Part shown: positions 17,905-32,581 of the stretch, piece after piece
Numbering within the stretch: position 1 is the stretch's first letter
Layout: the number at the start of each line of letters is the position of its first letter
DNA from: a virus
Lineage: Duplodnaviria; Caudoviricetes
Virus record (IMG/VR): IMGVR_UViG_3300003965_000017
Location: 1-32,581 of that record
Direction: 5' to 3' (one strand)
DNA length: 32,581 nucleotides
Made by a program: the position numbers and the translations under genes
The notes under the pieces: model-generated
Seen by the model: the letters and a program-made list of their open reading frames with translations, nothing else
Databases searched by the model: none
What the model was told of the DNA's origin: nothing

Positions 17905-18591
17905 CTAATCGATCTTCGGCAGCTTGTTTAGATCAACGCCAAGCTCTGTAAGGGAGCCCATAAGGCCTGCGACACAGCGGATCGAACCCGATTGGATTTC
18001 CTCCATGGTGCCCTGCGCGCCCGCCATCTCCGCAACGCCGCCGTCTCCATTGATGACCTTTTTGACATCTTTCATGGCAGACCATTTGTTGGTGAATACG
18101 TAGGCGCATTCCTCTCGCGCCTCTGTCAGCTTTTCATGAACAGATTTGCCGACAGAAGAAGGAACATCAATAGCGCGGATGTCGCTGCCGACAGGTAGGC
18201 AGACAGACTCCGCAACTTCCACTGCGCGATAGGACCGGACCGCGTCACCCTTGGCCATCTCGCCCGAAGCGGCTGTGAAAGCTTTATCGCAATCCGTCCC
18301 GGCTCTAATAACCTTCTGGTAAAACGCCGTAGCATCGGCCTTTGCCGTGTCTTCAGGCTTTTCGGGTATGGAGCCTGTAGTAGCGACAGAGCAAAAGCTG
18401 GCGCCCAGAACCAAAAGCACTGCGAGAGCACCGCAGCCCACCAGCATACTCTTCCGCTCAGATCTCATGGTTGCTTTGTCAGCTGCGGTAAATTCGCTTT
18501 GGCAATGCGGGCACTTGTTTGCCTGTGCGTTGATCCATTCCTTGCAATATGGACATTGGGCTGTGTTCAGCCCTGCTTTCGACTTGGCCAC
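17905..18591 (-). CDS. Zinc-ribbon + TM + Cys-paired helical domain protein downstream of cI
   Basis: CPYC...CPHC, hydrophobic GCGALAVLLVLGASFC segment, four spaced Cys in the C-terminal domain. GTG start with GGGGGA SD 10 nt after the cI stop; lower GC. Confidence 0.75.
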   Translation of the reverse strand: MAKSKAGLNTAQCPYCKEWINAQANKCPHCQSEFTAADKATMRSERKSMLVGCGALAVLLVLGASFCSVATTGSIPEKPEDTAKADATAFYQKVIRAGTDCDKAFTAASGEMAKGDAVRSYRAVEVAESVCLPVGSDIRAIDVPSSVGKSVHEKLTEAREECAYVFTNKWSAMKDVKKVINGDGGVAEMAGAQGTMEEIQSGSIRCVAGLMGSLTELGVDLNKLPKID

Positions 18592-18601
18592 ACAAATCCC
18601 C

Positions 18602-19279
18602 CTACACCCGTCTTCCGATCCAGATCACCCGGCCTATTGCCTGCACCTCGCCGTCATAGGCGGTGAAGTTCCCCACGGCAGGGTTGTCGCTGATGATCAG
18701 CGCGCCGCCGTCAGGTTGCATGCGTACCCGCTTGATCATGCCCAGATCGCCGTAATTCAGGCACCAGAGCCGGTCCTGCTTGATGATCGTCTTCTGTGCC
18801 GTGTCGATGATCACGAAATCGCTGTCGAGGATCGTCGGCATCATGCTGTCGCCTTCGCCGCGAGCGACGAACAGATCGCCGAAGGTGCCGCCGATCATCG
18901 GGCGCAGCCATTCGCGCGGGAAGGGGATCAGCGCGGTCTGGGCGTATTCCTCGAACACCGAACCGCCGCCCATGGAATAGCCGATATCCAGTTGGGGGAT
19001 CATTACCGTGCCCTCGGGAATTTCGGAGGGAGGGCCGCGCCAGGCCAGCTGCTTTTCCCCGAGCGGGCAGGAAGGATCATCGGTCTCCCCACGAAGGTAT
19101 GCAGATGTCGTCCGCAGCTGTCGGGCGATCAGATCGAGAGCACGCGTGGTCTTTGTCTCGCCAGTCAGGAGCCGCGCAATCGAAGGCTGTTTCATCCCCA
19201 CGCGCTCAGCAAGCTCGGACTGGTTAAGTCCGGCTGCTTCCATGGCTTTTGCCAAGTGCGCGCGATTCACCTCCCACAT
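18602..19279 (-). CDS. cI: CI-like repressor (XRE HTH + S24 peptidase)
   Basis: HTH LNQSELAERVGMKQPSIARL; S24 GDSMMPTI (Ser) and IKRV (Lys). Start chosen at ATG 19279; upstream in-frame starts exist. Confidence 0.92.
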   Translation of the reverse strand: MWEVNRAHLAKAMEAAGLNQSELAERVGMKQPSIARLLTGETKTTRALDLIARQLRTTSAYLRGETDDPSCPLGEKQLAWRGPPSEIPEGTVMIPQLDIGYSMGGGSVFEEYAQTALIPFPREWLRPMIGGTFGDLFVARGEGDSMMPTILDSDFVIIDTAQKTIIKQDRLWCLNYGDLGMIKRVRMQPDGGALIISDNPAVGNFTAYDGEVQAIGRVIWIGRRV

Positions 19280-19327
19280 GAACGGGGTGGTAGAACGTTG
19301 TTCAACCAGCATCATCCAACTTTTCCG

Positions 19328-19364
19328 TTGACCGTAATACGTGCACGTATATACGTGAACGTAT
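19328..19364 (+). promoter_or_regulatory. Early promoter with two abutting 14-bp operators
   Basis: TTGACC at 19328-19333; perfect palindrome ATACGTGCACGTAT (19337-19350) directly followed by ATACGTGAACGTAT (19351-19364), which overlaps the cro ATG. Confidence 0.75.
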
Positions 19365-19713
19365 GACAAGGTTCGAAGCCCTCAAGGCGGTGCGCGCCGC
19401 ATTTCCTACCGAACAGGCCATGGCCGATGCCTTCGGTGTGTCTCAACCGACCATCTGGCGTTGGCTAAATCAGTCGAAGCAGATGCCAGCGGCGCATGTG
19501 CTGACCGCAGAAAGGCTGACCGGTGTTTCCCGCCACGATCTGCGCCCTGACATCTACCCGCGCGAAGCCATGGTCGACCGTCACATTGGCGCGCGCTTTG
19601 CCGGCGTCGATCGCCATGCGGGGTTCGATCCTGTCCATGGTGCCTATCCTACCGCGCGCCAGCATGGGGTCGATTTCAATCGCCCGCAGGCTTTGAAGGG
19701 AGCGGCCCGGTGA
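19363..19713 (+). CDS. cro: Cro-like (YdaS-family) HTH regulator
   Basis: Q..MADAFGVSQPTIWRW...P..HV...E..TGVSRHDLRPDIYP; divergent from cI. Confidence 0.88.
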   Translation: MTRFEALKAVRAAFPTEQAMADAFGVSQPTIWRWLNQSKQMPAAHVLTAERLTGVSRHDLRPDIYPREAMVDRHIGARFAGVDRHAGFDPVHGAYPTARQHGVDFNRPQALKGAAR

Positions 19714-21161: not shown

Positions 21162-21460
21162 ACGACATTCGCCCCGGGGACCGCGTCCTCTACCGCGACG
21201 GCGACCGCTACGGCGTCGCCCGCGTCGACATTGTCGGCGAGCGCCATATCACCGGCTTCCCCTTCGACCCAGCCCACCGGCGCTGGTCCCGTCGCAACCG
21301 CCGGATCGCGGCCAGCTTTGTCTTCGGCAAGCTGCCGCCGCAGGAACATGCCGGTCGCATCGCGGCCAAGCTGGAACGCCTCGCCATCGAGCGCGACATC
21401 ATGCGTTCGCAGGCCAATCGCTGGCTGGAAGATTGCGTCCGGGAGCTCGCCAAACCGTGA
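21158..21460 (+). CDS. Hypothetical phage protein (SH3-like N-terminus possible)
   Basis: IRPGDRVLY start; coupled to neighbours; typical codon usage. Confidence 0.65.
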   Translation: MNDIRPGDRVLYRDGDRYGVARVDIVGERHITGFPFDPAHRRWSRRNRRIAASFVFGKLPPQEHAGRIAAKLERLAIERDIMRSQANRWLEDCVRELAKP

Positions 21461-24105
21461 GCCTGCAAGACGAAATCATGAAGGCCCTGCAGGCCCAGTT
21501 CCAGTTCCGCAAGACCAAGGGCGACTGGCTGCAGGAAGGCACCTGCCCGCAGTGCGGGAAGCGCGAGGCCTATTGCGCGGCCAAGGAACCCAAGATCGTG
21601 CGCTGCGGCCGGGCCGAGCGTTGCGGGTGGGAAGACAGCGTTCGCAACCTGCTGCCCGATCTGTTCGAAGACTGGTCGAACAACCACAAGCCCACGCCTG
21701 AAAACCCCAACGCCACCGCTGATGCCTACCTGCAATACGAGCGCGGGCTGGATCTGCGGCTGCTGCGCGGCCTCTACACGCAAGAGGTCTACAAGGATTA
21801 CGAGACCGGACAGACCTCGGCCGCGATCCGCTTCCCGATCGGGGACAGCTATTGGGAACGGCTGATCGACCGGCCGGGCCGATTCAAGAAAAAAGCGCAC
21901 TTCCGCAAGGGCGGCAGCTGGGGCGGGCACTGCTGGATGCCGAACGGCACCACCTTCCAAACCCTCGCCCAGGCAAACGAGATCTGGATCACCGAAGGCA
22001 TCTTCGATGCGACCGCGCTCTCGCAGGGCGCGAAGCTCGCCGCCGTGTCGAACATGTCGACGGGCCCCTATCCCGAGCACTTTCTCGGGGCGCTGGCCAA
22101 GGCCTGCCTCGATGCCGGCCGGCGCGATCGGCCGAAACTGGTCTTTGCCTTCGATGTCGGCGCCGCCGGCGTGTTCTACACCAAGAAGCATATCGAGCGG
22201 GCAAAGCGAGAAGGCTGGGATGCCACCGCCGCGCAGGTCCGCCCCGATGGGGAAGGGACCAAGCTCGACTGGAACGACCTTTTGCTGCGGCACCAGAGCT
22301 GGAAGGGCGCGCCCGAGGACGCACCGCTCGCGCCGGCCGCGATCGAAGGCTACCTCTACAACGGCGCAATCACGATCGCGGCCAGCCCGCGCGACAAGGC
22401 CAAGCTGCTTGTCGCCCGCAACGCCGGGCGATCATCGTTCCACTTCCGCCACGCCAACCGCATGTTCTGGTGCCGGGTGAAGATCGACGAGGACAACAAG
22501 CCGCAGCTCGACGTCGCCGAAATCTGCAACTGCGCCTGGCGCATCCTCTACCGCGAATATGATCCGGTCGAAGACCAGGCCACGTTCTTCCTGCAGATCG
22601 ACTTCCCCTTTGGCGATGAAACCGTGCGCGCCCGCTTCAGCGCCGCCGCTGTCACCAACGCGGCCGAGTTCAAGAAGCGGCTGATGACCTTCGCCGGTTC
22701 ATGGTCCGGCACCACCGAACAGCTCGACATCATCGTCAAGGCCCAGACCCGGCAGCTCAAGAAGATCGAGCCGGTGAAGGTGCTGGGCTATTCGCGCAAG
22801 CATGCTGCCTGGCTGCTCGGCGATATCGCCGTGCACAAGGGCCGCGTGGTAGAGCCCAACGCCGAGGAATATTTCGAGTTCGGCAAGCTCTCCGCCAAGC
22901 TCGCCAGCCCCGAACGGCCGCTCGAAATCCGCTACGATCCCGACCGGGTCGCGACCGAATGGCTCGATGATCTGTGGACCGCCTATGGCGCCAAGGGCGT
23001 GGTGGTCCTCGCCTTCTTCATGATGGCGGTCTTTGCGGTGCAGATCCGCGCGCGCGACGGATCGCTTGGCTTCCTCGAAATCACCGGGCTGCCCGGGGCG
23101 GGCAAATCGACGCTGGTGGAATCGCTCTGGCGGCTGCTGGGGCGTCCCGACTTTGAAGGGTTGGATCCCGTCAAGACCAGTGCGGCGGGCCTCGCGCGCG
23201 AGCTGGTGAAGTTCTCCAACCTGCCGATCGGCCTGATCGAAAGCGGGCGCGAGGACGATCGCAACCACTCCAAGAAATTCGATCCCAACGAACTGCTGGT
23301 GCTGTTCAACGGCCGCTCGCCCCGAACGATCGGGCGGCGGTCCGGCGGGTACGAGACAGACAGCCAGCCCTTCCAGGGCGCGCTCTACCTCATGCAGAAC
23401 GAACGGATTTCGGCGATCCCGGCCGTGCTCGAACGCCTCATGTCGCTGCACTTCGACAAGGCGCATTTCAGCGAAGCCGGCAGGGAAGCCGCATCGCGCT
23501 TCAAGCAGATGCCGCTCTCCGACGTGTCGGGCACGATCATCCATGTCGCCCGCAAGGAGGACGTCTACCTCACCGCGCACACGGCCCGGTTCAACCACCA
23601 CCTGAAGGACATGCGCCGCCGGGTCAAAGGGCTCGGAAACGATCGCGTCATCCTCAACCACAGCCAGCTCGCCGCCGCGATCGAAACCCTGCCGCTTCTG
23701 TTCCCGAACACCCGCTCCGAATGGGTGGCCGAAGCCGTCAGGTTGGTCGACGCGATGGCGATCGACCGCCAGCAATCGACGGGCGGCGATCACCCGCTGG
23801 TTGCCGCTTTCTGGGAAAACATCGAGCACCTGCTCAACCGAGAGGATGCCAACGCGCACGCCGAGGGCAGGAGCATCAACCAGCATCGCAACCCCCACGA
23901 AAAGATTGCGATCAACCTGCCCGATTACGAAGCCCGGTGCCGCAACGCTGGTCTCAGCCCGCCAAATCTCGATCAGCTCAAGAAGCTTCTGCGCGGCTCG
24001 AAATCACGGCGTTGGATCGCGACTAAGGCGGTCAACTGCCAGGACGACAAAACCCGCAGCTGCTGGGTCTTCCAAATCCCGACCGAGAAGGGGCCCTTCG
24101 TATGA
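21457..24105 (+). CDS. Replication protein: Zn finger + Toprim primase + P-loop helicase
   Basis: CPQCGKRE...CGR..RCG; WITEGIFDA, FAFD, DWND Toprim motifs; Walker A GLPGAGKST; GTG start overlapping the upstream stop. Confidence 0.9.
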   Translation: MSLQDEIMKALQAQFQFRKTKGDWLQEGTCPQCGKREAYCAAKEPKIVRCGRAERCGWEDSVRNLLPDLFEDWSNNHKPTPENPNATADAYLQYERGLDLRLLRGLYTQEVYKDYETGQTSAAIRFPIGDSYWERLIDRPGRFKKKAHFRKGGSWGGHCWMPNGTTFQTLAQANEIWITEGIFDATALSQGAKLAAVSNMSTGPYPEHFLGALAKACLDAGRRDRPKLVFAFDVGAAGVFYTKKHIERAKREGWDATAAQVRPDGEGTKLDWNDLLLRHQSWKGAPEDAPLAPAAIEGYLYNGAITIAASPRDKAKLLVARNAGRSSFHFRHANRMFWCRVKIDEDNKPQLDVAEICNCAWRILYREYDPVEDQATFFLQIDFPFGDETVRARFSAAAVTNAAEFKKRLMTFAGSWSGTTEQLDIIVKAQTRQLKKIEPVKVLGYSRKHAAWLLGDIAVHKGRVVEPNAEEYFEFGKLSAKLASPERPLEIRYDPDRVATEWLDDLWTAYGAKGVVVLAFFMMAVFAVQIRARDGSLGFLEITGLPGAGKSTLVESLWRLLGRPDFEGLDPVKTSAAGLARELVKFSNLPIGLIESGREDDRNHSKKFDPNELLVLFNGRSPRTIGRRSGGYETDSQPFQGALYLMQNERISAIPAVLERLMSLHFDKAHFSEAGREAASRFKQMPLSDVSGTIIHVARKEDVYLTAHTARFNHHLKDMRRRVKGLGNDRVILNHSQLAAAIETLPLLFPNTRSEWVAEAVRLVDAMAIDRQQSTGGDHPLVAAFWENIEHLLNREDANAHAEGRSINQHRNPHEKIAINLPDYEARCRNAGLSPPNLDQLKKLLRGSKSRRWIATKAVNCQDDKTRSCWVFQIPTEKGPFV

Positions 24106-25325: not shown

Positions 25326-25645
25326 GCCGCCCGCTCCCGACCCTGCGCATCGGCAGTTACGCGGCGATGGCGCGCGATATCGAACACGTCCGCGTATTCG
25401 CCGAGGATGCCGATGCCTTCCGCGGCGTGATCACCGCTCGCGCCGCGCTGGTCGAAAAGCAAATCACCCGCTTCGTCGCGCCCCACCGGCAGGGCGAGGG
25501 CCTGTGCGAGGAAGCCCTCAACCTCACCCTCGATGCGCTGCTCGAACTGCGCAACGCCGGCGCCGATCGCGACAAGGCGATCCGCCACCTCGAACTCGCC
25601 GCCGCCATGGCGATCACCACCATCAACACACTGCGACAGGAGTAA
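25322..25645 (+). CDS. Hypothetical helical phage protein
   Basis: Coupled ORF with typical codon usage. Confidence 0.65.
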   Translation: MSRPLPTLRIGSYAAMARDIEHVRVFAEDADAFRGVITARAALVEKQITRFVAPHRQGEGLCEEALNLTLDALLELRNAGADRDKAIRHLELAAAMAITTINTLRQE

Positions 25646-25650
25646 TCGCG

Positions 25651-26283
25651 ATGGCTGCCCCGCAAATCGAATTCGCCTATCCCACCAACTGGCCGGTCGG
25701 CCGCCCGCGCACCCCGTGGAACGAACGCAAGAATTCCCCCTTCCGCCACCAGGGCGGCTCGCTGCTGTTCGACCAAGCGGTACGCCGCTTGCAGGAACAG
25801 ACCGAGCTGGTCACCCAGCGTGGTCATCGCTGGCGGATGCGCGAGCTGACCCTTTCCACCAACTTTGAGCTGCGCGCCGATGGCCGCCCCCGGCGCGACA
25901 GAGGAACGCCCAGCGGCCCGGATGTCGCCTTCTTCTTCGAGCTAGACGGCAAGCCCCACCTGCTCGCCTGCGACCGCTACGACACGATCCCCGGCAATAT
26001 CGCCGCCATCGCCGCCCACATCGAGGCGCTGCGCGGTCAGGAGCGCTGGGGCGTGGCCACCCTGCACGAGGCCTTCGCAGGTCACGTCGCGCTGCCGGCA
26101 CCCGAGCAGTGGTGGCAGGTCCTCGGCCTGACCGCCGCCGCACCGGCTGATCTGATCCAGCGTCGATACCGCGAGCTCGCCCGCGACGCCCACCCCGATC
26201 GCGGCGGCAGCACTGCCGCCATGGCGCGCCTCAACGCCGCCCGCGACGCCGGGCTGCGCGCAGCTGCAGGAGGTGCGGCATGA
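25651..26283 (+). CDS. Phage protein with C-terminal DnaJ (J) domain
   Basis: WWQVLGL...I.RRYRELA..AHPDRGG....MARLN.A (HPD motif); N-terminal YP..WP.GRPRT region; AGGAG SD. Confidence 0.88.
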   Translation: MAAPQIEFAYPTNWPVGRPRTPWNERKNSPFRHQGGSLLFDQAVRRLQEQTELVTQRGHRWRMRELTLSTNFELRADGRPRRDRGTPSGPDVAFFFELDGKPHLLACDRYDTIPGNIAAIAAHIEALRGQERWGVATLHEAFAGHVALPAPEQWWQVLGLTAAAPADLIQRRYRELARDAHPDRGGSTAAMARLNAARDAGLRAAAGGAA

Positions 26284-26802
26284 GCGCCTATCTGCTCTCC
26301 GGGGCCGAGGTCAGCCCCTGCGCCAACTATCGCTACCGGCTCTGGCGTGGCTGGGACCGCTCGCGCGTGGCCATCTGTGTCTTCGTCATGCTCAACCCCA
26401 GCACGGCCGACGCCGATCAGGACGATCCGACGATCCGGCGGTGCGTGACCTTCGCCAAGCGGCTCGGCTGCACGGGGATCGAAGTCATCAACCTCTTCGC
26501 CTGGCGGGCGACCAGCCCCAAGGAACTGCTTGCGGTCGGTCCCGAGCGGGACCCTTGCGGCCCCGGCAACCAGCGCGCGTTCCTCGATGCGCTCGCGCAC
26601 CCCAAGATGATCGTCTGCGCCTGGGGCGCCCACGGCACGCATCTAGGGCAGGACCAGACGGCCCTTGGCTGGATCGACCAATACAATGATCGCGGTGCGC
26701 CGGTGATCGCGCTCGGCCTGACCAAGGAAGGCCAGCCCCGCCACCCGCTCTACCTGCCTAGCGACGCGCAGCCGATCCCCTTCGGAGGTGCGGCATGAGC
26801 GC
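26269..26802 (+). repeat. 19-bp direct repeat GGAGGTGCGGCATGAGCGC flanking the DUF1643 gene
   Basis: Identical copies at 26269-26287 and 26784-26802, each containing the SD and an ATGA stop/start junction. Confidence 0.85.
26280..26798 (+). CDS. DUF1643 family protein
   Basis: S.C..YRY.L.R.W, FVMLNPSTAD...DDPTIRRC..FA, NLFA.RAT.P, CAWG, G.TK.G.PRHPLY. Confidence 0.9.
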   Translation: MSAYLLSGAEVSPCANYRYRLWRGWDRSRVAICVFVMLNPSTADADQDDPTIRRCVTFAKRLGCTGIEVINLFAWRATSPKELLAVGPERDPCGPGNQRAFLDALAHPKMIVCAWGAHGTHLGQDQTALGWIDQYNDRGAPVIALGLTKEGQPRHPLYLPSDAQPIPFGGAA

Positions 26803-27144: not shown

Positions 27145-27275
27145 TCCCCCGGATCACCATCGCCCGCTGGGGCGGCCCGTCAGACCATAGCGAAACATGG
27201 TTCGAAGGCCGCTCGATGGCCATCGAATGGCTGGGCCTCATCCTCGAACTCAACATCGGAAAGGCGCGCCCATGA
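27141..27275 (+). CDS. Small hypothetical protein (44 aa)
   Basis: Fills the gap exactly, with ATGA overlaps at both ends. Confidence 0.5.
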   Translation: MIPRITIARWGGPSDHSETWFEGRSMAIEWLGLILELNIGKARP

Positions 27276-28468
27276 CCGGTCTTTTCTCCGGCGGCGTCCG
27301 TATGCTCCACGAAGAGGCGGTCGAACTGACCCTGCAGTCCCTGCGCGCTTACTGGGATAGGCACCAGCACGTCGCCGTCGCCTGGTCGGGTGGGAAGGAC
27401 AGCACCGCCACCCTCACGCTCATGGTCCACCTGATCGAGGCCGGCCACCTGCCGCGCCCTGCGAAGCTCTATGTCTTCTACGCCGACACCCGGCAGGAAC
27501 TGCCGCCGATCCAGCGCGCGGCCGAGCTGCTCATGGTCATGCTCTCCCAGCGCGACTGGATCGAGGTCACCGTGGTGCGCGCGCCGCTCGAAAAGCGCTT
27601 CATGGTCTACATCCTCGGCCGAGGCGTGCCGCCGCCGAACAACAACACGCTGCGCTGGTGCACTCGGCAGATCAAGGTCGAGCCGATGGCCGAGGCGTTG
27701 GGGCAGGCGATCGAGAGCCTGCCCGGCACGGCCCTGATGATCACCGGCGTGCGTGAGGGCGAAAGCGCGGTGCGCGACGGCCGTATCGCCATGTCCTGCA
27801 GCAAGGATGGCGCCGAGTGCGGGCAAGGCTGGTACCAGCAGGTCCTGCCGGATGCGAAGGGGATCAAGGGTCGCATCGCCACTCTTGCGCCGATTCTGCA
27901 TTGGCGGGTCTGCACCGTCTGGGACTGGCTGCGCATCTACGCCCCGCGTCCTGAGTTCGGGGGCTGGCCGACCGCTATCCTCGCCGACGCCTACGGGGGC
28001 GACGATGCCGAAGAGGTCAACGCCCGCACCGGCTGCATCGGCTGCCCTCTCGCCGCGAGGGACACGGCGCTCGAAGTCATCTGCGACATGCCGGCATGGG
28101 CACACCTCGCGCCGCTCAAGGAACTCAAGCCCCTCTACCGGTGGATGCGCGAACCCGCCCAGCGCCTGCGCAAGTCGGGGGCCGAGCGCCTGAAAGATGG
28201 CAGCATCGCCAAGAACCCCCAGCGCATGGGCCCCCTCACGCTCGAGGCGCGCGCGGTGGCGCTCGAGCAGATCCTCGACATCCAACGCCGCGCCGGCGTC
28301 GACCTGATCAACCCCGAGGAAGAGACCCGCATCCGCGAGCTTATCGCCGCCCGCACCTTCCCGGACAAGTGGGCAGGGGACGAACCCCGCGCCGATCGCT
28401 GGCTCGATGCGGTCTATCAGGACGGCTCGGTGCAGCCGATCCTCTTCCGGGATCTGGTCGGCTCATGA
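27272..28468 (+). CDS. PAPS-reductase-family PP-loop enzyme, DndC-like
   Basis: SGGKDS PP-loop, DT..E.P, ILGRGVPPP....RWCTRQIK, GVR.GES..RD, PI..W....VW, RTGCIGC, GPLTLEAR...LE..L..Q...LI..EE. Confidence 0.85.
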   Translation: MTGLFSGGVRMLHEEAVELTLQSLRAYWDRHQHVAVAWSGGKDSTATLTLMVHLIEAGHLPRPAKLYVFYADTRQELPPIQRAAELLMVMLSQRDWIEVTVVRAPLEKRFMVYILGRGVPPPNNNTLRWCTRQIKVEPMAEALGQAIESLPGTALMITGVREGESAVRDGRIAMSCSKDGAECGQGWYQQVLPDAKGIKGRIATLAPILHWRVCTVWDWLRIYAPRPEFGGWPTAILADAYGGDDAEEVNARTGCIGCPLAARDTALEVICDMPAWAHLAPLKELKPLYRWMREPAQRLRKSGAERLKDGSIAKNPQRMGPLTLEARAVALEQILDIQRRAGVDLINPEEETRIRELIAARTFPDKWAGDEPRADRWLDAVYQDGSVQPILFRDLVGS

Positions 28469-29187
28469 CATTCACCATCGAGAACGAACTGCCCGGCAGC
28501 GGCACTCTGACCGTCCGCCTCGGCAACCGCGTCACGCTATACTGCGGCGACGCCTACGCCATCCGGCCCACTCTGGGCTGGATGGACGCCGACGTCATGG
28601 ATCCGCCCTACCTCTTCGACAACAGCGGCGGCGGGGCCTTCCGCAAGAGCCGGGAAGGCAGCAATCGCATCGTTGAGGAACGGCTCGATCAGGGCTTCGA
28701 TCATCGCATCATCAACCCGCTGCTCTGCGGCGCGGCCGTGGTCTTCTGCCACAACGACCAGCTGCCCCAGCTGCTGCCCTTCATGGCCGGCAGCTTCAGC
28801 CGCTTCGCGCTGCTGGTCTGGGAAAAGCCCAACCCCATGCCGATGCGGAACAAGCATTACCTGCCCGATACCGAGCCCTTCATCCACGCCTGGTCGAAGG
28901 GCTATGCACCCGTCGGCGATCATCACGACATGCACCGCGTGATCAGGGCGCGGTCGGTGAAGACCAGTACCTTCGATCACCCAACCGTGAAGCCCGACGC
29001 CGTCATGGACAAGATCGTCCGCAACGTCCCCGGCAGCACGATCTGCGATCCCTTCATGGGCACCGGCTCGACCGGCGTCGCGGCCGTGAAGGCCGGCAAG
29101 GCCTTCGTCGGGATCGAGCAAAACCCCACCCATTTCGAAACCGCCTGCCGTCGCATCGCGGCAGCACTGGAAGGAACCGCACAATGA
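28465..29187 (+). CDS. N6-adenine/N4-cytosine DNA methyltransferase, beta class
   Basis: Catalytic DPPY near the N-terminus, HPTVKP, and SAM-binding DPFMGTGSTG near the C-terminus. Confidence 0.92.
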   Translation: MTFTIENELPGSGTLTVRLGNRVTLYCGDAYAIRPTLGWMDADVMDPPYLFDNSGGGAFRKSREGSNRIVEERLDQGFDHRIINPLLCGAAVVFCHNDQLPQLLPFMAGSFSRFALLVWEKPNPMPMRNKHYLPDTEPFIHAWSKGYAPVGDHHDMHRVIRARSVKTSTFDHPTVKPDAVMDKIVRNVPGSTICDPFMGTGSTGVAAVKAGKAFVGIEQNPTHFETACRRIAAALEGTAQ

Positions 29188-30401
29188 CCTCAATCGAATG
29201 GACCGACGAAAGCTGGAATCCGATCCGCGCCCGCCTGCGCTCCGATCCCACCGTGATCGGGTGGCACTGCGAGCACGCATCGCCCGGGTGCGAGCATTGC
29301 TACTCCGAAACCCGCAACCGCTCCGGCCGCTGCAACATGGGGACGAAGCTGCCCTACAAGCCAAGCCACCGGAGGGACATCGAGGTCTTCCTCGACGAGG
29401 CCCAGCTGCTGAAGCCGCTCCGGTGGAAGAAGGGCCGCAAGATCTTCGTCTGCTCGATGAGCGATCTCTTCGCCGACTTTGTCACCGGTGACATGCTCGA
29501 CCGCATCTTCGCGGTGATGGCGCTCTGCCCCCAGCACACCTTCCAGGTGCTGACGAAGCGCTCGGCGCGGATGCGGGAGTATTTCGCCAATTCAGGTGAC
29601 TTCGGCATCTGCCATGGCACCCCTCGGCGCGTGTGGCAGGCGATGTATGGGGTGGCTAAGACCCGCGCTGCGGCCGAGACGCTCGATAGCTGGTACGGCG
29701 GCCCGACCGCGGCACAATGGCCTCTCCCGAACGTCTGGCTTGGCGTCAGCGTCGAGGACCAGCAGCGCGCCGATGAGCGCATCCCCGACTTGCTCGCCAC
29801 CCCCGCCGCCCTCCGCTGGATCAGCGCCGAACCCCTGCTCGGGCCGGTGGATTTGACGCGCATCATGGAGGCGGGCCGAGACGAGTGCTTTCGAGGCGAG
29901 CCGAAGATCGTCAAGACGCTTGATGGTCGCAGCTGGTCCGAGACGCGCGGCAACCTCAACAGTCTTACCGGCCATTACTGGGGCGAAGACCTGATCGACG
30001 GTCAATGGGAGGACTGGCTTGGAGAGGGCGAGCGATCGCCAGGCTTCGATCGGCCTGGCTATTACAAGCCTCTCGACTGGGTAGTAGTCGGCGGCGAGAG
30101 CGGCACGGGCGCGCGCCCGATGCACCCCGACTGGGCCCGCTCCCTCCGCGACCAGTGCGCCGCCGCCGGCGTCACCTTCTTCTTCAAGCAATGGGGCGAG
30201 TGGGCGCCGATCGGATGGGAGCATGCCGGCAGCAAGCACCTGGTCACCGGCGACGGGTTCATCGTCCCCAAGGCCTTGGCCGACATGAAGCGCAACCAGT
30301 ATGGCCACGGCCTGATCGAGGTCGCCAAGCTCGGCAAGAAGCGCGCCGGCCGTCGGCTCGACGGCGCGCTGCACGACGGGATGCCGGGTGTCCATGGCTG
30401 A
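29184..30401 (+). CDS. DUF5131 (phage Gp37Gp68) three-Cys protein
   Basis: IEWTD.SWNP, Cx6Cx2C (CEHASPGCEHC), FVCSMSDLF, HTFQVLTKR, NVWLGVSVE, SAEPLLGP, WVVVGGESG..ARPM, FFFKQWG. Confidence 0.93.
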   Translation: MTSIEWTDESWNPIRARLRSDPTVIGWHCEHASPGCEHCYSETRNRSGRCNMGTKLPYKPSHRRDIEVFLDEAQLLKPLRWKKGRKIFVCSMSDLFADFVTGDMLDRIFAVMALCPQHTFQVLTKRSARMREYFANSGDFGICHGTPRRVWQAMYGVAKTRAAAETLDSWYGGPTAAQWPLPNVWLGVSVEDQQRADERIPDLLATPAALRWISAEPLLGPVDLTRIMEAGRDECFRGEPKIVKTLDGRSWSETRGNLNSLTGHYWGEDLIDGQWEDWLGEGERSPGFDRPGYYKPLDWVVVGGESGTGARPMHPDWARSLRDQCAAAGVTFFFKQWGEWAPIGWEHAGSKHLVTGDGFIVPKALADMKRNQYGHGLIEVAKLGKKRAGRRLDGALHDGMPGVHG

Positions 30402-30886: not shown

Positions 30887-31032
30887 CCCCGCCGCCGCCT
30901 CCTGCCATCTTCGAACTGGCGAAGGTGCTTGCGCGCGCGGCGGTGGCGCGGGACATAGCCCGCCTGCGGGAAAGCGAATCGACCGATGCGAACCCTGATC
31001 TACGCCCGATATTCCAGCCAGCTGCAGAATAG
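30883..31032 (+). CDS. 49-aa ORF overlapping the recombinase 5' end
   Basis: GGAGG SD at 30871, GTG start, amphipathic helix IFELAKVLARAAVARDI. Confidence 0.5.
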   Translation: MTPPPPPAIFELAKVLARAAVARDIARLRESESTDANPDLRPIFQPAAE

Positions 31033-32581
31033 CCGCTCGATCGACCAGCAGATCGGCGTCTGCCGTGACCGCGCGAGCCGCGAGGGCTGGCCGGTGGTCG
31101 ACGTCTTCACGGACTATGCGATCGGCGGCGCGGCCGGCACCGACGAGAGCCAGCGCCCGGGCCTCGCCGCCATGCTCGCCCGCGTCGAGCAGGGCGATAT
31201 CGATCAGGTCCTGATCGACACCACCAGCAGGCTCGCACGCAACCAGGGCGACGCGCACCACCTGCGCGAGCGCCTCAACTTCCACGGTGCGCGCCTCTTC
31301 ACCCTCGGCGATGGCGAGATCGACAGCTTCAAGGGCGCGATCAAGGGCCTGCTCGATGAACAGCAGCGGGTAGAGCTGCGCCACAATATCAAGCGCGGGC
31401 AGGCGGGCACCGTGCGCCAGGGGCGCAGCCCGGCCGGGCTCGCCTATGGCTACCGCCTCGCCAACCGGATCGACGATGGGGGCAGGGCAGTGCGCGGCCT
31501 GCGCGAGGTCGACGAAGACCAAGCGGCGATCGTACGGCGCATATTCACCGAATACGCTGCCGGCAGAAGCCCCGTCGCCATAGCCCGCCAGCTCAACGCT
31601 GAAGGCATCCCCGGCCCGCGAGGCAGTAGCTGGCGCGCCAGCACCATCCGTCCCGATCGCACCCGCGGCAACGGCATGCTCTCGAACCGCCTCTACATCG
31701 GCGAGCTGGTCCACAACCGCACCAGCAAGGTGATCGAACCCGTCACCCGCACCACCCGGATCCGCCCCAACCCCGAAAGCGCATGGATCATCGAAAGCGT
31801 CCCCCAGCTGCGCATCATCGACGATGCCCTCTGGGAAGCGGTGCAGGCCGAACTTGAGCGCAACCGCATCGCGAAGCCGGTCTACGCTCGCCGCCCCCGC
31901 CACATCCTTTCGGGTCTCGGCCAGTGCGGCACCTGTGGCGGCGCATGGAACATCAGCACGGGGCGCTTCTGGTCCTGCGGCGCGCGCCGCGACGGCGGCA
32001 CCTGCACGAACAATCGCACGATCAGCACCGAAAGCTACGAGCGCCACGCGCTCGCGGCGCTGCAGGACCAGCTGCTGGATCCCGAAGTGGTCTCGGCCTA
32101 CGTCCGCGAATACCATGAGGAATTCGCCCGCCGCGCGCGGCAGGGCCGCCAGCGCAAGGCCGCGCTCGAACGCCAGCTGCAGGCCGCCACCGCCAAGGTT
32201 GAACGCTTGGTCGCCGCCGTGGCCGAAGGTGCAGGCGAATTCGCCGAGATCCGCGAAGCCCTGCGCGCCGCCCGCCTTGATCGCGATCGCACGGCGGCCG
32301 AGCTGGCCGAGATGGATGCGGTCCGGGTCATAGCCCTGCACCCCGCCATCGCCGAGGAATACCGCCGCCATGTGGACGACCTGCGCACCGCACTCGCCGA
32401 ACCCGCCGCCCGTGAGGCGGCGATACCCGCTGTGCGCGAGCTGATCGACCGCATCATCCTCACTCCCAACCCGACCGGACGAGGCGTGAACGTAGAAGTC
32501 TGCGCCCGCCTCGCCGCCGTGGTCGAACTCGCCACCGGCGAACCGCCCGAGCGCGCAGACAAGGGCCGTCAAGCCGGATGA
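30986..32581 (+). CDS. Large serine recombinase (integrase)
   Basis: YARYSS catalytic Ser, RPGL..ML, SRLARN, YGY recombinase domain, CGTCGG...C...C zinc ribbon, coiled coil. Confidence 0.95.
   Translation: MRTLIYARYSSQLQNSRSIDQQIGVCRDRASREGWPVVDVFTDYAIGGAAGTDESQRPGLAAMLARVEQGDIDQVLIDTTSRLARNQGDAHHLRERLNFHGARLFTLGDGEIDSFKGAIKGLLDEQQRVELRHNIKRGQAGTVRQGRSPAGLAYGYRLANRIDDGGRAVRGLREVDEDQAAIVRRIFTEYAAGRSPVAIARQLNAEGIPGPRGSSWRASTIRPDRTRGNGMLSNRLYIGELVHNRTSKVIEPVTRTTRIRPNPESAWIIESVPQLRIIDDALWEAVQAELERNRIAKPVYARRPRHILSGLGQCGTCGGAWNISTGRFWSCGARRDGGTCTNNRTISTESYERHALAALQDQLLDPEVVSAYVREYHEEFARRARQGRQRKAALERQLQAATAKVERLVAAVAEGAGEFAEIREALRAARLDRDRTAAELAEMDAVRVIALHPAIAEEYRRHVDDLRTALAEPAAREAAIPAVRELIDRIILTPNPTGRGVNVEVCARLAAVVELATGEPPERADKGRQAG

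Follow-up and report, generated by a model that had tools for sequence, protein, structure and literature searches.

In the phosphorothioate writer DndC, the ligands of the iron-sulfur (Fe-S) cluster are C146, C280 and C283, with C273 predicted as the fourth, and altering the loop ahead of C146 abolishes modification (PMC12193691); a Cys dyad of the protein is described as the likely sulfur acceptor (PMC10853773), and IscS can replace DndA (PMC3519819). For the TdpABC system, tdpC alone is reported to suffice for phosphorothioate synthesis, with GATC as the site (PMC12914056), and the title of the Tdp paper cited there describes an adenylation of the phosphate with displacement of AMP by sulfur (An et al. 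2025, Nat Chem Biol 21:1160). In Vibrio phage 44E38.1, a fusion of a 3'-phosphoadenosine-5'-phosphosulfate (PAPS) domain with Dam, together with one small gene, is reported to bring escape from Dnd (bioRxiv 10.1101/2021.05.05.442762, where the fusion is p0018; it is antiDnd_p0020 in PMC13223576). Further papers serve as general background only (PMC8569181, PMC12839542, PMC12707154, 10.64898/2025.12.10.692286). Here we compare with these systems a gene of the virus record IMGVR_UViG_3300003965_000017, whose whole length of 32,581 nucleotides (nt) is the window analysed. The gene (gene 1; 27272-28468, + strand, 398 amino acids (aa)) encodes a DndC/TdpC-like protein of the PP-loop/PAPS-reductase fold, a member of PHROG 12882 and of what we call the 'ECG-dyad' clade. 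It is followed on the same strand by gene 2, a small orphan beta-class amino-methyltransferase (28465-29187, 240 aa), and gene 3, a DUF5131 protein (PHROG 2045; 29184-30401, 405 aa) with a predicted radical S-adenosylmethionine (radical-SAM) fold. We put at about even the chance that gene 1 writes phosphorothioates into phage DNA as a stand-alone, TdpC-like enzyme that needs neither DndD nor DndE.

The initial annotation of the window had read the three genes as one DNA-modification module around a DndC-like enzyme, an interpretation that is partly supported here. As it described, the three open reading frames (ORFs) are intact and co-directional, with ATGA stop/start overlaps at 28465 and 29184, and they lie downstream of the primase, between it and a serine recombinase; several ORFs, including a J-domain ORF and DUF1643, stand between the primase and gene 1. 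DndA/IscS, DndD and DndE are indeed absent from the window, as judged from 11 proteins against Pfam, 7 against NCBIfam and the remaining ORFs by eye.

Gene 1 beside the described writers

Gene 1 is a typical member of the catalogued phage family PHROG 12882 (714 bits), and the window locus itself is an ordinary one. Out of 8,000 scored candidates, 4,951 match it, the best 120 being 79-95% identical, and its relatives are encoded on 324 viral and 201 genome stretches. Our locus set consists of the best 80 of the 324 viral and the best 80 of the 201 genome stretches (160 loci), with flanks of up to 10 kb, shorter on small contigs. After copies at least 95% identical were removed, a non-redundant set of 127 loci was left, 107 of which have flanks of 2 kb or more on each side. 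In GenBank, eleven phage records reach 61% or more, including Mae-JY29, RR1-A and Dobby; identity is 92% to Mae-JY29, 63-64% to Pseudomonas phage Dobby and Rhizobium phage RR1-A, and 37% to gp3 of Thermus phage Tsatsa.

All the gene-1 motifs quoted in the initial annotation are present. The PP-loop S39GGKDS (residues 39-44; 27386-27403, + strand) is invariant or nearly so in an alignment of 70 proteins. The stretch GRGVPPPNNNTLRWC (G116 to C130; 27617-27661, + strand) aligns to the specificity loop of DndC and ends in the predicted Fe-S ligand C130, while R252TGCIGC258 (28025-28045, + strand) holds, by the DndC alignment, two further predicted ligands, C255 and C258. These three cysteines, at the places of DndC C146, C280 and C283, are invariant in the 70 proteins; G320PLTLEAR and LINPEE complete the series. 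The pair C176/C183 in C176SKDGAEC183G (Cx6ECG; 27797-27820, + strand) had been regarded as an extra feature and is instead a hallmark of the family, conserved to at least 90% in the same alignment down to about 30% identity. DndC's own C262/C273 loop is absent from gene 1, and the family pair is predicted to replace it. A search for that loop (ECP..SCG, a pattern which some dndD-adjacent DndCs also escape) found it in 0 of the 127 gene-1 copies. All four motif groups are retained in 126 of these copies, the exception (L041) being frameshifted, and the specificity loop is identical in 122. The dyad count of 127 out of 127 is biased because one pattern that collected these loci included the ECG stretch; the patterns that collected the wider relatives did not. 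Within the loop, NNT resembles the NQT of GATC-type DndCs (PMC12193691), a weak hint by analogy at a GATC site.

The likeness to DndC/DptC (TIGR03183) that was noticed first stands as regards motifs and alignment. The PP-loop, the three Fe-S cysteines, the specificity loop, GxRxxESxxR, RxGCxxC and a C-terminal GP..L..R..L helix are common to both, and Salmonella DndC aligns at 27% identity over 345 columns (70.9 bits, E-value 1e-17). Nevertheless, the profile comparison proposed at that stage gave 88 bits against TIGR03183, under the curated cut-off of 290.4, and CysH (NF002537) was rejected at 13 bits against a cut-off of 154; with PADLOC, DndC scored 90 bits and BrxP and SspD lower, at 51 and 35. 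Gene 1 also differs from DndC in having no ECP..SCG loop and no dndD or dndE, and it stands in a separate clade. Its nearest characterised kind, to judge from the comparison that follows, is probably TdpC and not DndC.

In the metagenome locus L294, a dyad protein of 379 aa is directly followed by homologs of TdpB (PDB 8wet_G, E-value 1.3e-48) and TdpA (8wet_A, E-value 1.5e-67), and because of these neighbours we infer that it is TdpC. Gene 1 matches this protein with 156 bits and 33% identity over 329 columns, compared with 70.9 bits and 27% for DndC; the two share clade, loop, approximate size and the Cys pair Cx(5-6)ECG, and neither has dndD or dndE. They differ in that gene 1 lies in a phage early region and not in a defence locus. 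In a FastTree phylogeny of 119 rows, the dyad proteins came together with weak support (81), two SspD-like rows falling within the group on a very long branch. IQ-TREE was run on 39 rows under LG+G4, with no mixture model and with the SspD-like and other long rows excluded; 19 dyad rows, including the window and L294 proteins, formed a clade at 100/99 and 12 DndC rows one at 96/96, while CysH formed a separate 100/100 branch. When the dyad and DndC-loop columns were removed, the supports were 98/99 and 97/90, in a run that gave a warning of two long outgroup branches. Forcing the phage rows with DndC was rejected (approximately unbiased test, p-AU 0.002), the tested group having been named after the first tree was seen. 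The TdpC grouping explains how gene 1 could work without DndD and DndE. PHROG 12882 is catalogued already, and its grouping with TdpC is added here; no paper testing the function of PHROG 12882 or linking the family to TdpC was found, in a search with most subscription papers and all supplements outside its reach.

The AlphaFold model of gene 1 (predicted local distance difference test, pLDDT, 89.5) matches CysD, FAD synthase and adenosine-5'-phosphosulfate (APS)/PAPS reductases with Z 12-15 over approximately residues 1-265, and such matches of a model speak to the fold, not the function. Neither the window protein nor Salmonella DndC found a sequence match in PDB, the gene-1 family profile gave only weak PP-loop matches, and no TdpC chain was among the PDB matches of the sequence or structure searches. 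In ESM Atlas, only PAPS_reduct clusters were returned, with a DndC cluster at rank 15, and the BFVD fold search returned other phage PAPS-like proteins at template modelling (TM) scores of 0.3-0.4. The gene is under strong purifying selection, with a ratio of nonsynonymous to synonymous rates (dN/dS) of 0.07-0.16 in 8 comparisons (two from the same contig), compared with 0.13-0.40 for the primase, 0.15-0.48 for gene 2 and 0.25-0.58 for gene 3. The lack of a DndD-binding tail was tried as an argument for independence and dropped, because 17 of 51 DndCs beside dndD are equally short or shorter (331-348 aa after the PP-loop in those 17, 360 aa in gene 1). A search for longer gene-1 forms gave 3 proteins. 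In P0396 and P0397, gene-1 halves are joined to neighbouring methylase genes at the ECGQG stretch; these were rejected as true fusions and are apparent deletion junctions or chimeras.

No dndB, dndD or dndE was found in the 160 gene-1 family loci, and no ssp or brx genes were found among the recurrent gene-1 neighbours. For the wider relatives (the best 80 of 454 and the best 80 of 311) with at least 2 kb downstream, dndD is a near neighbour of 42 of the 46 non-dyad proteins and of 0 of the 30 with the dyad. A whole-genome DndD search in 50 carriers, picked from the 80 genome loci for long contigs, gave 5 matches, 3 of them above the cut-off, which is near the dndCD background frequency of 4.3% (PMC12914056). 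The suggestion that gene 1 helps or interferes with a resident Dnd system is therefore weakened. On the other hand, the proposed borrowing of a host desulfurase holds as far as supply is concerned, since each of the 5 sphingomonad carrier genomes checked encodes IscS-like and SufS proteins (types assigned by reading the sequences), one of which the phage protein would use. When gene 1 was modelled in complex with an IscS-like protein of a sphingomonad, 4Fe-4S and pyridoxal phosphate, the score was 0.00, which is uninformative either way.

Writers of the wider collection keep varied company. Dyad-clade writers stand beside HATPase_c_3 (GHKL-type) ATPase genes in L295:9064-10713, L298:1672-3597 and L299:9611-11308, possibly a further phosphorothioate defence arrangement; in L295, DUF429 and type I restriction-like genes are present as well. 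In L293:610-3516, a dyad-clade writer precedes genes for a small membrane protein and a DndB-family protein, at a locus without dndD. One viral contig carries two dyad-clade matches about 3 kb apart (L391:5052-8855), and in a cluster of 2 loci a reverse transcriptase (RVT_1) lies two genes upstream of gene 1 (L110:8096-9565). Non-dyad DndC-like writers without dndD occur in L306:99-2969 and L369:7274-9041, each after a putative membrane protein of about 220 aa. At L307:152-4056, the writer lacks the dyad but has a Cys pair of its own, and it is accompanied by a TdpA-like fragment and a Mrr-type nuclease; a short ORF there is IscU/NifU-like by eye.

Explanations for gene 1

As a phosphorothioate writer, gene 1 would be expressed with the early operon upon induction or infection. 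A host desulfurase of the IscS or SufS type would assemble a 4Fe-4S cluster on C130, C255 and C258 and deliver sulfur, with C176/C183 acting as the fourth ligand or as a sulfur carrier. The specificity loop would select one short site, for which GATC is a weak guess; the PP-loop and ATP would adenylate the phosphate, and sulfur would displace AMP. Marked virion DNA could then be seen as 'self' by phosphorothioate-based restriction such as DndFGH, and could resist some nucleases in the next host. Gene 2 would likely methylate adenine for the same broad purpose and gene 3 would likely perform radical chemistry on a nucleotide or a DNA lesion, each acting alone. The broader proposition is that hundreds of temperate phages carry a one-gene writer of the TdpC lineage, filed as 'PAPS reductase', which sulfur-marks the backbone at one shared site; judging from the sequences we place its chance a little short of even. 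Phage 44E38.1 offers a likeness, in that a phage PAPS-like domain and an adenine methylase are tied to escape from phosphorothioate-based defence. The comparison is by description only, and there the domain (aa 4-175) is fused in a 479-aa protein whereas gene 1 is a free protein of 398 aa whose neighbouring methylase varies and is unfused. The 44E38.1 protein was not among the best 60 of 135 phage matches (E-value at most 1), its record being perhaps outside the database searched.

Several observations weigh against a TdpC-like writer. The TdpC assignment rests on the single locus L294 and not on a characterised TdpC sequence. The phage subclade is set apart from the L294 protein by a branch of 0.66, a divergence that, at 33% identity, would be enough for a change of function. 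In L307 the TdpA-like fragment (E-value 1.9e-25) adjoins a writer that falls outside the dyad clade, unresolved at its base. A search of 401 genomes of the phylum of G036 gave no TdpB, and dndD was matched in only 5 of 50 carriers, so that neither result points to the defence that would be escaped. Writers of the Dnd, Ssp and BREX-4 systems require an ATPase partner (PMC12914056). No methylase adjoins gene 1 in 79 of 107 loci, and GATC usage gave no informative shift (1.08 in carriers and 1.10 in non-carriers). Further nulls belong beside these. The 4-mer medians of 111 carrier and 61 non-carrier loci differ by at most 0.08 and are not interpretable. Phage gene 1 has no tdpA or tdpB beside it, and of 452 loci searched with the L294 TdpA and TdpB sequences, L294 and L307 alone gave a match. 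Plasmids, viral contigs, 401 genomes of the phylum of G451 and 2 single genomes yielded no further tdp locus, the tdp locus searches having been run without a positive-control genome.

Gene 1 could instead be an active PP-loop/Fe-S enzyme that makes another mark, such as a thiolated or adenylated base, a backbone that stays adenylated, or a modified free nucleotide or tRNA. Its fold is common to base thiolases and ligases (NcsA Z 11.4, TilS Z 11.2, TtuA Z 10.6), the position of its Cys pair is unlike DndC's, and the phage subclade has a long stem. However, the thiolase matches lie mainly in residues 1-265 at 10-14% identity, and only phosphorothioate writers resemble gene 1 over its full length, specificity loop and C-terminal helical part included; we consider this reading unlikely, but worth keeping in view. 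It is improbable that gene 1 is a decoy or dominant-negative protein, one that joins or titrates host Dnd, Ssp or Tdp complexes or IscS and makes no mark: although a phage PAPS-domain fusion is reported as an anti-Dnd factor (bioRxiv 10.1101/2021.05.05.442762), 126 of 127 gene-1 copies retain every catalytic and Fe-S residue, dN/dS is near 0.1, and a dndD match is lacking in 45 of 50 carrier genomes. The name PAPS reductase, given by PHROG and GenBank, and the sole Pfam match, PAPS_reduct, would suit an auxiliary sulfur-metabolism CysH (PAPS/APS reductase), as would the fold matches to APS/PAPS reductases (Z 12-13) and the metabolic treatment of phage PAPS reductases in PMC13369170. That reading is very improbable given the failure against the CysH profile, the separate CysH branch, the C-terminal ECG(I/L)H motif of host CysH found in 0 of 127 copies, and a reductase fold match no better than that to CysD or FAD synthase (Z 15). 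Taken as sequence evidence, the family points to DNA backbone modification rather than sulfur metabolism.

Independent assortment of the three genes

According to the initial annotation, the three proteins share one pathway that places a compound mark on top of methylation. The genes were found to assort independently, an outcome named beforehand as refuting the module. The methylase family of gene 2 occurs in 6 and DUF5131 in 18-19 (depending on the score filter) of the 80 viral loci, and in 4 and 10 of the 80 genome loci. In the 127 non-redundant loci, both partners accompany gene 1 once compared with a chance expectation of 1.27, any methylase and DUF5131 do so 12 times compared with 13.4, and 42 loci show neither partner; the outcome is unchanged when only the 107 loci with 2 kb or more per side are counted. 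By reverse anchoring, gene 1 appears in 8 of 76 methylase-anchored loci and in 0 of 19 DUF5131-anchored ones (a set of 20, one without a usable anchor). Relatives by primase also carry different subsets. All three genes are found in L257 (86%), with a 485-nt gap ahead of DUF5131. Gene 1 is missing from three relatives, of which L235 (83%) retains a methylase remnant and DUF5131, L163 (80%) the methylase, and L161 (60%) both the methylase and DUF5131. Mae-JY29 (62%) combines gene 1 with the methylase and lacks DUF5131.

In favour of a module are the translational coupling of the three genes, their joint presence in 5 of the 76 loci anchored on the methylase (in L210 and L218 as direct neighbours in a different order), and the adjacency of gene 1 to this methylase in its nearest relatives L081, L082, L162 and Mae-JY29. 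However, ATGA overlaps also couple unrelated neighbours in the window (26280, 26795, 26980), and the class of the adjacent methylase varies. Because co-occurrence equals chance and close relatives carry different subsets, the module is rejected as highly improbable; the three genes are separately exchanged early-region cargo and not a fixed module.

A methylase lies within 300 nt of gene 1 in 28 of the 107 loci, within 2 kb in 48 and anywhere in 63. The 28 adjacent ones comprise 16 of class C5, 10 N6/N4, 1 D12 and 1 MT-A70, and in Dobby and RR1-A a C5 methylase lies directly upstream of gene 1. For DUF5131- or DUF1643-anchored controls, the corresponding counts are 1, 5 and 8 of 24 (p 0.03-0.04 over the three distances, 0.026 for adjacency), and for another phage PAPS family they are 3, 8 and 16 of 36. 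There is thus modest evidence that gene 1 is linked loosely to methylases of varying class; its weight is limited because most seeds of the methylase profiles came from gene-1 loci, the control set is small and the loci are related to one another.

Gene 2 scores 61 bits against N6_N4_Mtase (PF01555, cut-off 26.7) and matches MTase_II PDLC03371 of PADLOC (E-value 1.4e-22). Its motifs stand in the beta order, DPPY (46-49) before DPFMGTG (195-201), and DPPY is found in 76 of 86 related frames, duplicates counted. As a rule of thumb, DPPY indicates N6-methyladenine (m6A); gene 2 is likely an ordinary orphan adenine (m6A) methylase and independent cargo. Gene 3 matches DUF5131 (PF07505) with 285 bits. 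The guess of a radical-SAM protein agrees with its Cx6Cx2C motif (C29-x6-C36-x2-C39; 29268-29300, + strand), invariant in 52 aligned homologs, and with the structural matches of its model (pLDDT 77), the top 20 rows being all radical-SAM enzymes. The best match is spore photoproduct lyase (Z 11.9, root-mean-square deviation 3.3, 204 residues aligned, 9% identity), the next is at Z 9.3, and Foldseek agreement is weak (E-value 0.02). The motif differs from Cx3Cx2C, the usual one of radical-SAM enzymes. We predict for gene 3 a radical-SAM enzyme similar to spore photoproduct lyase, and in RadicalSAM.org DUF5131 is megacluster 5-2, beside the lyase in 5-3 (PMC9477430).

Prophage setting and meaning of the family

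By its gene layout, the window reads as a P2-like prophage. At the left end, a host response-regulator ORF and tRNA-Gly(CCC) (486-559, + strand), the likely attachment site, mark the prophage edge; head, baseplate, tail and lysis genes follow (the structural names are our reading of the translations and not a profile scan), then a repressor region, the primase (21433-24105, PHROG 1139) and the cargo genes. The serine recombinase (30986-32581) forms the right end, and the record stops at its stop codon, the opposite prophage end being outside view. The protein with a C-terminal DnaJ domain (25552-26283, + strand, PHROG 9210) is also found in 5 of 6 primase-related loci, one match covering only 40 aa. 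DUF1643 (26280-26798, + strand, PHROG 3230), just upstream of gene 1, is another independently assorting cargo gene, present in 9 of the 80 viral gene-1 loci. The GC content falls to 0.58 across 18001-19000, a possible lysogeny cargo slot, where a repressor-like gene (18602-19369, - strand) and a small putative membrane or lipoprotein gene (17905-18591, - strand) are located. A promoter and terminator scan gave 0 promoters, and 5 terminators compared with 8.2 expected. Among gene-1 copies whose hosts are named, the nearest come from Erythrobacter, Porphyrobacter and other sphingomonads, so the phage host is probably a sphingomonad.

Phage 'PAPS reductases' are commonly classed among the genes of sulfur metabolism (e.g. 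PMC13369170). Elsewhere they are flagged as unexplained, as with the Tsatsa protein (PMC11437467) and a DndC-like gene in a Sinorhizobium prophage (PMC12429752). For the gene-1 family, the grouping with TdpC turns the question of function into a one-gene experiment, and cultured phages (RR1-A, Tsatsa and Dobby) carry the family. If the phosphorothioate-writer reading is true, some phage 'cysH' counts would need re-reading, and phosphorothioate-based defence would face a counter-measure by mimicry. Backbone modification encoded by the phage itself would then act as anti-restriction, and the family would provide a compact enzyme for placing phosphorothioates in DNA.

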